The notes beneath the pieces are model-generated. The model searched no databases. It was not told the origin of the DNA and was given only the letters and a program-made list of their open reading frames with translations. Source: Candidatus Latescibacterota bacterium (GTDB lineage: Bacteria; Latescibacterota; UBA2968; GCA-2709665). From it: a stretch of 64,000 nt of DNA. The stretch is from assembly GCA_965237675.1 (NCBI GenBank), contig OZ250150.1:3648001-3712000 (forward strand). The letters run 5' to 3'. A program made the position numbers and the translations under genes. This document shows, piece after piece, positions 3,342 through 22,887 of the stretch. Each line of letters opens with the position of its first letter. The stretch's first letter is position 1.

Positions 3342-4688
3342 ATGAACCTGGATTGGGAACAGGCGGGCAGGGAGGCGGTGGACTGGCTTTGCAGACTGCT
3401 TCGATTCGACACCACGAATCCGCCGGGGAACGAGATGCCTCTGGTACAGGATGTCGCCGGGGCGCTGGCCGCGGAAGGGCTGTCCCCTCGAATTCTGGAA
3501 TCGGCGCCAGGACGCGGGAATCTGGTTGTCCGTCTTGAGGGCGATGGATCGGAACGGCCCGTACTGTTGTTGTCGCACCTGGATGTGGTTCCGGCGGAGC
3601 CCGATAAATGGACCCACGCCCCGTTTGGCGGCGAGGTGGCGGCGGGGTATGTCTGGGGACGAGGGGCGATCGATTCCAAGCTCACGACGGCGGTGGGACT
3701 TCAGGTATTGTTGATGTGCAAGCGGCTGGGAATTCCGCTGTCGCGGGACCTGGTTCTGGTGGCAGCCGCAGACGAGGAACTCGGGGGGGTGCACGGAGTG
3801 CGCTGGCTTAACGCCAACCACCCCGAGGTGTTCGACGCCGAATACGGCATCAATGAGGCCGGCGGCTTTGCATTGCTGATCGACGGTCGACCGGTATACA
3901 CGTGCCAGGTGGCCGAAAAGGGAAGTGCCGAGTTGAATCTGGTTGCGCGGGGACAACCGGGACACAGTTCCGTGCCCCACAACGACAATGCGGTATTTCA
4001 CTTGGCAAGGGCCCTGGGGAATTTGAGCGAAACGAAAATGCCTCACCGCGTTACCGCCGCGGTCAGGGCGTTTTTCGAAGGCGCCGCGGGTGCGCAGGTC
4101 AGGGACGAGGTGGCGGATATGCTCCTGGGAGTACTGGACCCGGAACGCTGCGATGGCGCTTTGTCCGTCTTGCCGGTTGACGAGCCGACCCGGCTGATGT
4201 TCGACGCGATGGTGCGCAATACGTGTGCACCGACCATTCTCGAGGCCGGCGTGAAACGCAATGTGATCCCTTCCGAAGCCGTGGCCAGGCTGAGCGGCAG
4301 GCCATTGCCGGGGGCGGATGAGGCGGGGTTTGTCCGCGAAGTCCGCGACCTTGCGGGCGAGGGCGTTGCCTTGGAGATGGGAAGCGCCTTCAGGCCGGGC
4401 ACGGAGTTCGACCATCAGACGCCGCTGTTCGACGCCATCCGGGCGTCAATCGTCCAGTTCGATCCCGAAGGGGCCGTGGTCCCATATATGCAGACGGGTG
4501 GTACGGATGCGCGGTTTCTGCGGGATCGCGATATCCACGTATATGGATTCATACCCATGCGGTACGAAACGGGTGAGGCCTTTTTCGAACTGTGCCATGG
4601 CCACGACGAACGGGTGTCCGTTGCGAATGTGCGTTTTGGGGTGCAGGTACTATTCGATGCCGTGTGCCGGTTGAACGGTATTGTGTAG
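3342..4688 (+). CDS. M20/M25/M40 family metallohydrolase
   Basis: SHLDVVPA, GRGAIDSK, ADEELGG, NEAG, GGTD, HGHDER; start moved to ATG 3342 after GGAG. Confidence 0.85.
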   Translation: MNLDWEQAGREAVDWLCRLLRFDTTNPPGNEMPLVQDVAGALAAEGLSPRILESAPGRGNLVVRLEGDGSERPVLLLSHLDVVPAEPDKWTHAPFGGEVAAGYVWGRGAIDSKLTTAVGLQVLLMCKRLGIPLSRDLVLVAAADEELGGVHGVRWLNANHPEVFDAEYGINEAGGFALLIDGRPVYTCQVAEKGSAELNLVARGQPGHSSVPHNDNAVFHLARALGNLSETKMPHRVTAAVRAFFEGAAGAQVRDEVADMLLGVLDPERCDGALSVLPVDEPTRLMFDAMVRNTCAPTILEAGVKRNVIPSEAVARLSGRPLPGADEAGFVREVRDLAGEGVALEMGSAFRPGTEFDHQTPLFDAIRASIVQFDPEGAVVPYMQTGGTDARFLRDRDIHVYGFIPMRYETGEAFFELCHGHDERVSVANVRFGVQVLFDAVCRLNGIV

Positions 4689-19601: not shown

Positions 19602-21038
19602 TCAGGTCAGCCTGGGGAAGAGCGGTTGACTCTTCCGGATCACGGGTCTTGAGAAGCTGCTCTCGATTCTCCCGGCGGTTCGTGGAAGAAAGGGTTTCAG
19701 GCTCCATGCTATGGCGTGGACCGACCCGACCCACGCCGAGAGGTGTTGTCTTAACCTCTCGGCTTTTTGTTGTTTCAGAAGTTCCCATGGGCGGGCCGCG
19801 TCGATTTCCCGGTTCAGTTGAGCGATCTGCCGCCAGATGGACCGGAGGGCCGCGGCGAAGTCGAAGCTGTCCCGGACGTCCTTCAGGTCCGGTGAAATGC
19901 GGGTGCGAGGCGTTTCCGCACGACCGTAGCCGGCCTTTTCGCAAAGGGCTTCGAGCCGGCGAACGAGGTTGCCCAGGCCGTTCGCAAGGTCCGAGGTGTA
20001 GACTTCCCGGAGCCGGGCTTCGGAGACGTCTCCGTCCCCTCCGGAGCGGACGGCGCGGAGCAGGTAGTACCGGACGGCGTCAGCGCCGTACCGCTCGATC
20101 AGCGGGAATGGATCGACGGCGTTGTCCAGCGACTTGCCGATCTTGCGGCCCTCTACGGTCAGGTGGCCATGGACGAAGATGGCCCGGGGCAACGGCAGGC
20201 CGGCCGAAAGCAGCAGGGCTGGCCAGTATACCGCGTGGAATTTGAGGATATCCTTGCCGATTACGTGGATCCTGTTGGGGCAGTTGCGCCAGTACCGTTC
20301 GAAATCTTCGAACCTGGAGCCGTAGCCCAGGCCGGTGAGGTAGTTGGTCAGGGCGTCGAACCAGACGTACATGACTTGGGTGGGATCTCCCGGCACAGGC
20401 ACCCCCCAGCCTCCCGAACGTTCCCGATTGCGGGAAATACTGAAGTCGTGCAGGCCCTGCCGGATGAATCCCAGCGCCTCGTTTCGCCGTGTTTCCGGGA
20501 GAATGCGGAGCTTTCCAGACACGATCAGGGCCTCCAGCGGCTTCTGATAGTTGGAAAGACGGAAGAAATAGTTCGTTTCTTCGACGTTCTCGGGTTCGAC
20601 ACCATGTACAGGGCACCGTCCATCCGCCAGGTCCGGTTCCAGATAGAAGTCCTCGCAGCCCACGCAATACAGACCGCGGTACTGTTTGAGGACAATATCC
20701 TCTTGCCGGCAGGCCGTCCAGAATCTGGAAGCGCCGCGGAAGTGGGCGTCGGAGGAGGAGCGGATGAAGCGGTCGGAAGCGATGTCGAGGGCCTCGACAA
20801 GGTTCAGGAAGACAGCGGCGTTCCGATCGCAGAACTGGCGGGGGGCCAGGCCTTCCCTTGCAGCGGCCTGCACGTTCTTGAACGCGTTCTCGTCGGTTCC
20901 GGTCAGGAAAAAGGTGTCGTCGCCCAGGAGCCGGCGCCACCGGGCAATCGCGTCGGCCTGTACGAGTTCCAGAGCAAAGCCCACGTGGGGGCGGGCGTTG
21001 ACGTAGGGGATGGAGGTCGATACATAGAAGGTGTTCAT
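19602..21038 (-). CDS. metG: methionyl-tRNA synthetase, short single-knuckle form with variant signature motifs
   Basis: IPYVN, HVGF (HIGH), TGTDEN, CxxC...CPVH, YVWFDAL, GKDILKFH, KIGKS (KMSKS), DLANGLGNL. Confidence 0.9.
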   Translation of the reverse strand: MNTFYVSTSIPYVNARPHVGFALELVQADAIARWRRLLGDDTFFLTGTDENAFKNVQAAAREGLAPRQFCDRNAAVFLNLVEALDIASDRFIRSSSDAHFRGASRFWTACRQEDIVLKQYRGLYCVGCEDFYLEPDLADGRCPVHGVEPENVEETNYFFRLSNYQKPLEALIVSGKLRILPETRRNEALGFIRQGLHDFSISRNRERSGGWGVPVPGDPTQVMYVWFDALTNYLTGLGYGSRFEDFERYWRNCPNRIHVIGKDILKFHAVYWPALLLSAGLPLPRAIFVHGHLTVEGRKIGKSLDNAVDPFPLIERYGADAVRYYLLRAVRSGGDGDVSEARLREVYTSDLANGLGNLVRRLEALCEKAGYGRAETPRTRISPDLKDVRDSFDFAAALRSIWRQIAQLNREIDAARPWELLKQQKAERLRQHLSAWVGSVHAIAWSLKPFLPRTAGRIESSFSRPVIRKSQPLFPRLT

Positions 21039-21277
21039 GGCAAGTCCTTTCCATTTGCGGACTGAATAAGGATAAAGCGACGCATTTCGGCTCGGAACAG
21101 GACATGCGCATGTAAGAGATACCGCCGGTGCTGTGAGATAAACAGTTGAACATTCGGTTTTCCCCCATAAAATTGGAGCGGTTCAGGCCTTGGGACACCG
21201 TTTCGTCAATTTGCGATCCGGACCCGTGGCGTCAGGCGCGATACGTGGCCAGAAATGAATGAGGACTGTTTTTGCAC

Positions 21278-21314
21278 AAATTAAAACCCACCGCCGATCC
21301 GTCGGCGGTGGGTT
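21278..21314 (-). terminator. intrinsic terminator between leader ORF and metG
   Basis: 13-bp stem AACCCACCGCCGA-CGGA-TCGGCGGTGGGTT followed by TTAATTT on minus strand. Confidence 0.85.
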
Positions 21315-21343
21315 GGTCGATTCAGGTACAGGTGTGATTCAGT

Positions 21344-21502
21344 TCAAGTCAGGGGATGGTCCGCCGCCGAAAACCCGGTAGAAAAGGAGGCCATCATGTA
21401 CATAGATATATCGTCGACACGTGTCGACGGCGTGCCGTTGAAGGCGGGAAAAGCAGACGTGTTCGAACTCGTTGCTTTATTTGGCTTCAGATCCGGCGTC
21501 AT
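21344..21502 (-). CDS. 52-aa small ORF, candidate Met-rich leader peptide
   Basis: SD AGGAG 6 nt before ATG, consensus promoter upstream, terminator downstream; ...DISMYMMASFSTGFSAADHPLT. Confidence 0.55.
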   Translation of the reverse strand: MTPDLKPNKATSSNTSAFPAFNGTPSTRVDDISMYMMASFSTGFSAADHPLT

Positions 21503-21530
21503 GGCAGGCTCCTGTCTTTGCGTTCGCGGA

Positions 21531-21559
21531 AATATAGAATGCTGGGTGGGAAATGTCAA
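21531..21559 (-). promoter_or_regulatory. sigma70-type promoter of leader ORF/metG
   Basis: TTGACA-N17-TATATT on minus strand. Confidence 0.7.
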
Positions 21560-21837
21560 GTCTGCCGATCGCATTTCGGTTTTTCGGCTGGCGCCGCGAT
21601 CGCACAGGTAACCGTTCAATGTCCGTGAATATCGTAGCTATTTGGCATGAGTGTGTTCCCGGCCCATCCGGGTTGCGCCCGTCGCGGGATTTTCATCTTC
21701 CCCTTGTCCTTTTGGCGGGATGGGCTTACATTGTCGCAGATAGGAGACCTGGTGGTCGGCTTGCCAGTTGTCTGGTTTTAAGCCTGTACCAGGTGTGCAT
21801 CGACTTTCGCGAACATTACAAGAATAGGGACTCGGTC

Positions 21838-22887
21838 GTGCTTTACTGGTTGGGGGAGCGTTTCGCGGATATTTACGGGCCTTTTCGGCTGTTAACGTCC
21901 TATCTGTTTCTGGCCGTTCTCGGCACGGCGCTGGCAGGACTGTTTACCTGGCTGCTACTTCCAAGATTGTGGATGCGGTTGCCCAAAGACCGGGGCCGCG
22001 CGTTTGCCGTCGAGAACGAGCAAAGCCACGGCAAGCCCGTTGGCGCGGGCGTTATTTTCATCCCTATCTATCTGGTCGTGTGTTTGCTGATTCTTCCGCC
22101 GGGATCCCAGTACTGGCAGATTCTCGGCTGTGTTTTCCTCGCGATGCTGGCCGGTTTTCTGGACGATCGAAGCCCGGGAGGGTGGGGCGAGTATCGCGTG
22201 GGGGCCATCGACCTGGGCATTTCGTTACTGGGCGCGATGGTCATTTGCCAGTTGGCGTCCGTCGACGTCTGGTTGCCGCTGATGAAGACGCCGGTATCGG
22301 TTCCGCCGTGGATTTTTGTGCCCGGAGCCGCATTGTTGATCTGGGTTTCAATTAATGCCACCAACTGTACCGACGGCGTGGACGGGCTGTCGGGCAGCCT
22401 GAGTGTCATGGCTTTTGTCTATCTGGGCACGATTCTATACGGGATTGTGGGGCACCGGGACATTGCCAGGTATCTACTCGTGCCGCATTATCCGGATGGT
22501 GCGGTCTGGGCGCTGTTTGCATTTACAATGGCCGGATGTCTGGCCGGTTATCTGTGGTACAACGCCTATCCGAGCGCCGTACTGATGGGAGACGCCGGTT
22601 CCCGGCCAATGGGCCTCTTGCTCGGGACGCTGGTTCTGGCCTGCGGCAATCCGTTTCTGATCGTCGTCGTTGCCGGGGTGGTTCTGGTGAATGGGGCTAC
22701 GGGGCTCCTGAAAGTGGCGTTGCTGCGGTTCTTGAAAATCGGGATCTTTAAGACGGTTCGTTATCCGCTGCACGATCATTTTCGGCACAAAAAAGGTTGG
22801 TCGAACACCCATGTGCTTGTGCGGTTTATTCTGCTTCAGGCGTTTGTGACGCCAATTCTGCTGGTTCTGCTGGTCAAGATCCGTTAA
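21838..22887 (+). CDS. mraY: phospho-N-acetylmuramoyl-pentapeptide transferase, outside a dcw cluster
   Basis: GKP.G.G, GFLDD, NATNCTDGVDGL, LWYNAYP..VLMGDAGS, PLHDH; GTG start inferred. Confidence 0.85.
   Translation: MLYWLGERFADIYGPFRLLTSYLFLAVLGTALAGLFTWLLLPRLWMRLPKDRGRAFAVENEQSHGKPVGAGVIFIPIYLVVCLLILPPGSQYWQILGCVFLAMLAGFLDDRSPGGWGEYRVGAIDLGISLLGAMVICQLASVDVWLPLMKTPVSVPPWIFVPGAALLIWVSINATNCTDGVDGLSGSLSVMAFVYLGTILYGIVGHRDIARYLLVPHYPDGAVWALFAFTMAGCLAGYLWYNAYPSAVLMGDAGSRPMGLLLGTLVLACGNPFLIVVVAGVVLVNGATGLLKVALLRFLKIGIFKTVRYPLHDHFRHKKGWSNTHVLVRFILLQAFVTPILLVLLVKIR

Follow-up and report, generated by a model that had tools for sequence, protein, structure and literature searches.

We consider it reasonably probable that expression of metG, the gene for methionyl-tRNA synthetase (MetRS), is controlled in a Latescibacterota-like genome by a ribosome-mediated transcription attenuator that lies in the metG 5′ leader, is keyed to methionine codons and would sense Met-tRNA. 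The locus was analysed within a 64,000-nucleotide (nt) stretch of contig OZ250150.1, hereafter the window, in which the minus strand carries a promoter, a Shine-Dalgarno (SD) sequence, a 52-codon open reading frame (ORF) with a tight cluster of Met codons, an intrinsic terminator and metG, in that order (Table 1). An original prediction, made from the letters alone, had placed all of these elements, together with the sequence TCGGCGGCGG inside the ORF, exactly where they are found. Its core, a Met-codon leader attenuator of metG, passed the comparative tests described below, whereas its account of how a terminating ribosome masks the antiterminator, the covariation it looked to for support and its description of the MetRS as atypical did not.

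Relatives were collected by a MetRS scan with one genome per species, which returned 585 relatives, and the best 80 were examined as loci. Six of these are close to the window (MetRS identity 88% in L042, 82% in L001, 80% in L003, 79% in L002, 78% in L005 and 75% in L004), with five labelled as Latescibacterota and one (L002) as Gemmatimonadota, while the next-best relative reaches at most 57% identity. Searching these loci with the leader peptide by tblastn placed it directly 5′ of metG in L001, L042, L002, L005 and L003 (E 6e-7 to 7e-4) and gave no match in L004. Promoter, SD, ATG, ORF, Met cluster, the motif GCGGCG, stop codon and terminator are in register in five of the six closest loci and the window. 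Both promoter hexamers fall in the same alignment columns in six of the seven sequences, L004 being the one without them, and the L003 promoter is identical to that of the window (TTGACA-17-TATATT). The linkage to metG that had been set as a check was borne out, with the small ORF found only directly 5′ of metG in 5/5 loci having it; no other copy of the leader unit was found in the window or among the 80 loci, and an nhmmer profile of the leader recovered only the six known copies. In L042, L001, L002 and L005, the terminator stem ends just 20-31 nt 5′ of the metG ATG, leaving no room for a separate promoter, and metG in these loci would therefore be transcribed only by read-through. At the gathering score, Rfam returned nothing in the window, the six close loci or eight distant loci, T-box (RF00230) and S-adenosylmethionine (SAM)- and Met-related riboswitches included; at E up to 5 on window positions 20950-21700, the only match was to a long non-coding RNA and was meaningless, with no T-box or SAM element. 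In L004, a gene that by eye resembles the C-terminal part of a class II aminoacyl-tRNA synthetase lies 5′ of metG on the same strand (L004:3301-3747). Because no promoter-like or terminator-like site was found between the two, L004 metG may be co-transcribed with this gene.

The leader promoter is the sole minus-strand promoter-like site within positions 20800-21900 of the window, a region whose two strands together hold 2 such sites, as compared with 0.8 ± 1.0 in shuffled sequences. A GGAG or GGGG motif lies 6-8 nt 5′ of the leader ATG in all six leader-bearing sequences, and no insertion or deletion separates start from stop in any of them. The stop codon of L002 is TAA rather than TGA, a change that disrupts a predicted base pair but preserves the stop. 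Across the six sequences the leader frame contains no in-frame stop, whereas the two alternative frames contain 19 and 6, and after shuffling of alignment columns the frame was still open in all six sequences in just 49 of 20000 trials. The substitutions themselves lack the pattern of a constrained protein. Variable columns are distributed 39/30/31 over the three codon positions in the whole ORF and 13/8/8 in its 3′ half (codons 33-52), neither showing a third-position excess, and non-synonymous codon differences (13-20) exceed synonymous ones (6-9) among the four closest leaders; in the first 100 codons of metG, by contrast, synonymous changes outnumber non-synonymous ones. The 5′ half of the window ORF is almost wholly unlike the other copies, with the same length kept. 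No Pfam or NCBIfam family matches the peptide, and the only further copies among 5.8 billion predicted proteins are P0001 and P0002, two metagenome records that are both 52 amino acids long. Because the ORF is maintained beyond chance yet its substitutions lack coding-type constraint, this is, on comparative grounds, the signature of a leader peptide, in which the act of translation rather than its product would be under selection.

Four-codon windows holding at least three ATG codons occur only 3 times among 127,978 when all six frames of the whole window are counted. Conservation of the cluster, another check put forward with the original prediction, was confirmed: Met34 and Met36 are present in 8/8 known leader copies and Met37 in 7/8, the exception being L003, in which Pro occupies position 37, a position that is Met in its close relative P0002. 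The consensus fold leaves unpaired the A of AUG34 along with the A and U of AUG36 and places two U residues in G-U pairs, and all of these positions are invariant. Since unpaired and wobble-paired positions are held constant alike, the pattern argues for a constraint on codon identity rather than on pairing. Around the cluster, most leader copies share a C-terminal motif, S-M-x-M-M-x-S-F..A-A-x-H-P, of which A46, A47 and H49 are invariant; the codons of the invariant Ala-Ala pair read GCGGCG and match the terminator arm.

The terminator is found in all six sequences, with a 13-14-base-pair (bp) stem followed by a U tract, and 12 of 14 pairs are invariant. Its 26-nt core occurs once in the window even when 3 mismatches are allowed, and among the 80 loci only in metG leaders, on which grounds a repeated or mobile terminator was rejected. 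Upstream of it, TCGGCGGCGG (21370-21361), which begins 22 nt past the final codon of the Met cluster, matches the terminator 3′ arm at 9/10 positions, and the GCGGCG motif is the longest invariant run inside the leader ORF across the six sequences. The segment containing it (region 2) could thus pair with the terminator 5′ arm (region 3) as an antiterminator in place of the terminator helix 3:4. RNAalifold on the six leaders predicts four elements, namely a hairpin at codons 25-30, a pairing of the Met-codon segment (region 1) with region 2, the terminator 3:4 and a long-range helix. The 1:2 pairing, in which the Met-codon segment meets CGGCGG and would act as an anti-antiterminator, emerged from this comparative fold and was absent from the original prediction; 81-90% of its cells are paired, with one-sided changes only. 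Among these elements, compensatory changes are confined to the hairpin at codons 25-30, where 2 pairs have changed on both sides; it is a possible pause hairpin for RNA polymerase. The predicted long-range helix joins leader codons 3-7 to the stop region (21482-21496 with 21339-21351, minus strand), with 87-94% of cells paired in the six sequences and no compensatory change.

Predicted duplex energies range from −11.9 to −19.3 kcal/mol for 1:2, from −15.3 to −20.6 kcal/mol for 2:3 and from −26.3 to −27.9 kcal/mol for 3:4, and the 2:3 pairing comprises 7+2 bp in the window, as compared with 6 bp in its relatives. We modelled the stalled state by removing the RNA that a ribosome with AUG37 in its A site would hide and by leaving out the terminator 3′ arm as not yet made. 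These folds have 6-10 nt of the 14-nt terminator 5′ arm paired with region 2 in 6/6 sequences, in agreement with the earlier proposal that stalling on the Met codons leaves the antiterminator free. The modelled helices are compatible with a four-segment layout of the trp type in which the regulatory codons lie inside segment 1.

In the mechanism that we propose, RNA polymerase would start at the conserved promoter and a ribosome would translate the 52-codon leader behind it. With Met-tRNA(Met) plentiful, the ribosome would clear codons 34-37 and region 1 would pair with region 2 behind it, leaving the terminator 3:4 to form and transcription to end before metG. When charged tRNA(Met) is scarce, whether MetRS activity or methionine is limiting, the ribosome would stall on AUG36 or AUG37 and cover region 1. 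Region 2 would then be free past the leading edge of the ribosome and could pair with the emerging terminator 5′ arm, and with the antiterminator 2:3 in place RNA polymerase would read into metG, giving homeostatic feedback on MetRS.

Several observations weigh against this mechanism. The leader is long, with its Met codons 15 codons 5′ of the stop, and the third Met of the cluster is missing from L003. All known leader copies number 8 and come from one clade, and all of the sequences derive from uncultured genomes; L004 carries metG without the leader unit. The stop codon lies 15 nt past region 2, so a ribosome at the stop would cover its last nucleotides at most and hardly mask it. The original prediction had read-through to the stop hide the antiterminator; with the ribosome reaching only those last nucleotides and the pairing persisting in constrained folds, that step is doubtful, and termination would more probably come about by regions 1 and 2 pairing again behind the ribosome. 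The window itself has a weak 1:2 helix (−13.2 kcal/mol) in a register other than that of the consensus. In ribosome-free minimum free energy (MFE) folds, the 2:3 pairing is retained in 3/6 sequences (window, L002 and L005), and, where MFE folds were constrained by a ribosome placed at M34, M36, M37 or the stop, every fold that includes the 3′ arm has the terminator. Because the full terminator forms at every ribosome position, such thermodynamic folds are uninformative on the switch, which would have to be kinetic, as in trp. The covariation between antiterminator and terminator that had been asked of relatives did not appear: none of 1:2, 2:3 and 3:4 covaries above controls across the six sequences, with 91.1 as the percentage paired against 90.4 ± 0.5 (61/500 shuffles reach it) and a covariation score reached by 196/500, because the pairing segments hardly vary. 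Finally, MetRS also charges the initiator tRNA, and a severe shortage should on this account block initiation on the leader and favour termination.

A gap of about 240 nt separates the terminator from metG in the window, which the original prediction had listed as a caveat. The gap is real, but it holds a second conserved regulatory module. An internal promoter, the alternative raised for this interval, is not seen, there being no sigma-70-like site on the minus strand of 21040-21270 in a scan restricted to that promoter type. The window, L003 and L004 share a spacer element, hereafter unit 2 (the leader being unit 1), whose two strands would form a 17-bp helix with the metG SD and start codon buried in it. 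The helix appears in the separate MFE folds of the three sequences and in their RNAalifold consensus, and it contains one compensatory pair (C-G / U-G / U-A). As a partner for the metG translation initiation region, the unit 2 5′ strand is the best in 3/3 loci by 6-10 kcal/mol (−22.8, −24.0 and −23.3 kcal/mol, with the next best at −13 to −17), and no comparable sequestration of the metG start was found in the four loci that lack unit 2. We conclude from these folds that unit 2 would repress metG translation by occlusion. For the four loci lacking unit 2, region 1 was considered as a metG anti-SD sequence and rejected, its energies being −10.8 to −14.7 kcal/mol and its rank 2 or lower. Both units are present in the window and L003, unit 1 alone in L042, L001, L002 and L005, and unit 2 alone in L004, indicating that the two modules are separable. 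In the window and L003, transcripts that read through the terminator would thus face a second checkpoint in the form of the helix over the metG start.

How this helix might be opened is a matter of conjecture, and our guess is a ribosome dwelling on AUG codons of a second upstream frame. A possible start of such a frame (Table 1) falls in the same column, with a purine-rich stretch 5′ of it, in the window, L003 and L004, and a 9-nt insertion in L004 keeps the frame. The unit 2 5′ strand reads AUG-CGC-AUG-UCC in it, that is, AUG-N3-AUG. The frame has no stop before metG and runs into it out of frame; its openness is not significant, stops being scarce in every frame of that stretch. Part of the unit 2 AUGs is also accounted for by their complementarity to the CAUG at the metG start. 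We therefore treat the second upstream ORF as a candidate, a hypothesis drawn from the sequence. Unit 2 was not picked up by the nhmmer leader profile as homologous to region 1, so that the resemblance of AUG-YGC-AUG-UCC to region 1 falls short of demonstrated homology. Continuing the possible second upstream ORF, an open frame of 372 codons (20080-21198, minus strand) lies across metG in another reading frame. Its counterparts in the relatives stay open over 48 to more than 200 codons, and base composition is the probable cause. Within the unit 2 5′ strand there is also ACATGCGCATGT (21102-21113, minus strand), a perfect 12-bp palindrome that is imperfect in L003 and L004 and could equally be a protein operator at the DNA level.

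Met-rich leaders are also present before metG outside this clade. Among 78 loci with at least 300 nt upstream of metG, 11 have a sense upstream ORF with at least 3 Met codons within 8 codons, as compared with 1 of 78 on the antisense strand. These 11 are four Latescibacterota leaders, five from Chloroflexota (L027, L035 and L043, less clearly L057 and L068) and two from Alphaproteobacteria (L058 and L032); L030 and L063 have 2 Met codons and a terminator. The Chloroflexota leaders align with one another, with 2-4 Met codons directly 5′ of a conserved GC hairpin (GCGCGG..CCGCGC), two in-frame 6-nt insertions or deletions, a stop (TGA or TAA) in one aligned column and an intrinsic terminator before metG. 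In L058 (Pelagibius sp., 2651-2778), a 22-codon ORF with M-M-M is followed by a 10-bp terminator and then by metG, and the upstream ORF of L032 (Rhizobium sp., 3756-3960) contains M-M-P. The two ORFs have ATGATGCCG and a CCGCTTC..GGGGCGG hairpin in common, with a clear U tract only in L058, and a search for further alphaproteobacterial leader copies in a plasmid collection gave no match. No Rfam family was matched in any of these outside loci. Because these outside units have no sequence in common with the Latescibacterota leader, the Met-leader design seems to have arisen more than once. We put it forward as a tentative reading, less likely than not, that Met-codon leaders represent an unrecognised and recurrent form of metG control with independent origins in Latescibacterota, Chloroflexota and Alphaproteobacteria, at least three phyla in all, elaborated here into a two-tiered device in which both tiers are opened by ribosomes dwelling on AUGs. 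If this were true, the charging of elongator Met-tRNA would directly set MetRS synthesis, though the same enzyme supplies the initiator tRNA.

The conservation of the leader could in principle reflect RNA rather than translation. We regard it as unlikely that the element is an RNA-only switch, be it a riboswitch, a T-box-like element binding tRNA(Met) or an operator bound by MetRS, in which the ORF is incidental and the AUGs act as RNA, the tRNA(Met) anticodon and the CAUG at the metG start being examples of possible pairing partners. Nucleotide conservation in the 3′ half of the ORF is indeed independent of codon position (13/8/8), pairing with the metG start region explains the AUGs of the unit 2 5′ strand, and the established autoregulation of threonyl-tRNA synthetase via its own mRNA, which PMC2965389 mentions, offers a precedent. 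Against this stand the maintenance of the ORF beyond chance (49/20000), the conserved SD, ATG and stop with a TGA-to-TAA change that keeps the stop at the cost of a predicted pair, the invariance of unpaired A and U residues of the AUGs, the lack of any T-box, SAM or other Rfam match even at E up to 5, and the recurrence of unrelated Met-rich ORFs with terminators in other phyla.

A translated ORF might instead matter for its product. TnaC and SpeFL are nascent-peptide arrest sensors, and a sensor of that kind here, whose conserved C-terminal half would stall the ribosome on a small molecule such as free methionine or S-adenosylmethionine and not for want of charged tRNA, would suit both the C-terminal motif of most copies, with A46, A47 and H49 invariant, and a leader that is long for a classical attenuator. 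Such a sensor is nonetheless highly improbable, given that codons 33-52 lack a third-position excess (13/8/8), that the invariant Ala-Ala codons are the GCGGCG matching the terminator arm, and that the leaders of other phyla have Met codons in common with it and not this peptide. Somewhat less remote, but still improbable, is an independent small gene, furnished with a promoter and terminator of its own and encoding a 52-amino-acid protein or a small RNA, with metG served by constitutive leakage past the terminator or an unrecognised promoter. The strong promoter (11/12) and strong terminator, the calling of the ORF as a protein in both metagenome records (P0001 and P0002), the 240 nt between terminator and metG in the window and the unit-free metG of L004 would all accord with it, but the substitutions lack coding-type constraint, no protein family and just 2 relatives were found among the 5.8 billion proteins, the gap from terminator to metG ATG shrinks to 20-31 nt in 4 loci, the spacer has no promoter-like site on the minus strand, and the unit is confined to metG in the window and the 80 loci.

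The attenuator that we favour belongs to an established class of mechanism, and what would be new are its methionine specificity, the phyla concerned and the tandem translational module. In E. coli trp, segment 2 follows closely on the stop codon and is therefore covered by a terminating ribosome. The metG leader resembles trp in having four predicted segments, regulatory codons in segment 1 and a terminator more stable than the antiterminator, from which it follows that the decision would have to be kinetic, as in trp; it departs from trp in the position of its stop past segment 2, which is why termination would have to rely on re-formation of 1:2. In translational attenuation of the ermC/cat type, a leader ribosome that has stalled opens a helix over the downstream SD and start. 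Unit 2 would likewise sequester a downstream SD and start with a helix whose 5′ strand lies in a possible upstream frame, but unlike ermC/cat that frame has no stop before metG, and there is no antibiotic link. The ermC system is mentioned in PMC2965389.

The systems closest to it are classical leader-peptide attenuators of synthetase genes, namely pheM-pheST in gamma-proteobacteria and, as predictions, those of trpS and leuS in Streptomyces (PMC1262725). The metG leader shares with them a short ORF with clustered cognate codons and an intrinsic terminator before the synthetase gene, and its predicted 1:2 / 2:3 / 3:4 pairings would likewise be exclusive and give feedback on charging of the cognate tRNA. 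It differs in its amino acid, its 52 codons, the distance of its regulatory codons from the stop (15 codons) and its phylum, and moreover in that MetRS also charges the tRNA that initiates the leader and that a second, translational module follows in this genome. His leader peptides upstream of hisS paralogues in bacilli (PMC2965389) are comparable as computationally found ORFs with a run of cognate codons and a premature terminator before a gene of a synthetase family; amino acid, phylum and sequence differ, and T-boxes occur there in neighbouring species, unlike here, where the Rfam searches found none. PMC2965389 states that demonstrations of leader-peptide systems had previously been confined to Proteobacteria and Actinobacteria, and taken together PMC1262725 and PMC2965389 describe such attenuation for Trp, Phe, His, Thr, Leu, Ile/Val and Cys. 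PMC1262725 describes methionine genes as being under S-box riboswitch, T-box or repressor control, names S-box riboswitches as the known regulators of methionine operons and found no RNA structure for these operons in Actinobacteria. We found no description of a Met-codon leader peptide for metG or for methionine genes in full-text literature searches, which left subscription journals largely outside.

A Met-codon leader before metG would accordingly add an amino-acid specificity and extend the mechanism to uncultured phyla, and it raises the question of how a sensor functions when its leader itself needs Met-tRNA for initiation during MetRS shortage. In practical terms, the 52-codon ORFs could be annotated as leaders rather than as hypothetical proteins, and the unit might serve as a naturally occurring reporter for the charging of Met-tRNA. 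Independent test cases would come from the units of Chloroflexota and Alphaproteobacteria, the latter at least being culturable.

Table 1. Features of the metG leader region in the window, followed by the Chloroflexota leaders in coordinates of their own loci.
Feature	Position	Strand	Remarks
Leader promoter	21531..21559	-	TTGACA (21559-21554), 17-nt spacer, TATATT (21536-21531); 11/12 consensus positions
Leader SD, AGGAG	21509..21513	-	6 nt 5′ of ATG at 21502
Leader ORF, 52 codons + TGA	21344..21502	-	Start column, stop column and length same in 6/6
Hairpin within ORF, codons 25-30	21412..21429	-	7-bp stem, 4-nt loop; columns 106-123 of alignment A2
Region 1, Met-codon segment (predicted anti-antiterminator 1:2 with region 2)	21389..21406	-	RNAalifold columns 129-146 with 159-174
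Putative regulatory Met-codon cluster, ATG-TAC-ATG-ATG	21392..21403	-	Codons 34-37; only internal Met codons of the ORF
Region 2 (predicted antiterminator 2:3)	21361..21376	-	Contains CGGCGGCGG (21369-21361), complementary to terminator 5′ arm
Intrinsic terminator (regions 3:4)	21278..21314	-	13-bp stem (9 G-C), 4-nt loop, U-rich tail; stem-loop 21314-21285
Possible start of second upstream ORF	21151..21166	-	SD-like GGGGGA 21166-21161, ATG 21153-21151; frame runs through unit 2 5′ strand (Y-M-R-M-S)
Unit 2, 5′ strand	21093..21112	-	CATGCGCATGTCCTGTTCCG; complementary to metG ribosome-binding site and start codon
Unit 2, 3′ strand	21036..21053	-	metG SD (GGAAAGGA, 21052-21045) and ATG (21038-21036) buried in predicted helix
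metG, MetRS short form, 478 amino acids (regulated gene)	19602..21038	-	ATG 21038; PF09334 E 4e-91
Chloroflexota leader loci	L027:3813-3956, L035:152-302, L043:3735-3900, L030:872-1112, L063:3755-3926

The product of metG, which had been called atypical, is an ordinary short form of MetRS. It scores 394.9 bits against TIGR00398, above the cut-off of 336.35, and the nearest solved structures, 2csx, 4dlp and 1a8h, are ordinary short MetRS enzymes of about 500 amino acids (2csx_A, E 5e-108). Downstream of metG lies hrcA-grpE-dnaJ in convergent orientation, and upstream of the leader is a divergent gene for a membrane protein of the MraY/GT4 family. The first ATG of this divergent ORF (21553, plus strand; site 21553-21559) is formed by the complement of the leader −35 hexamer; the true start of the gene is probably further downstream, in which case it and the leader would have back-to-back promoters. 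Repeat-like insertions separate the divergent gene from the leader promoter in L042 (3400-3700), L001 (3380-3690) and L003 (3520-3590) and are absent from the window; the three insertions have a common core, ..CCTGAGGAGGCC..GCAGGC...

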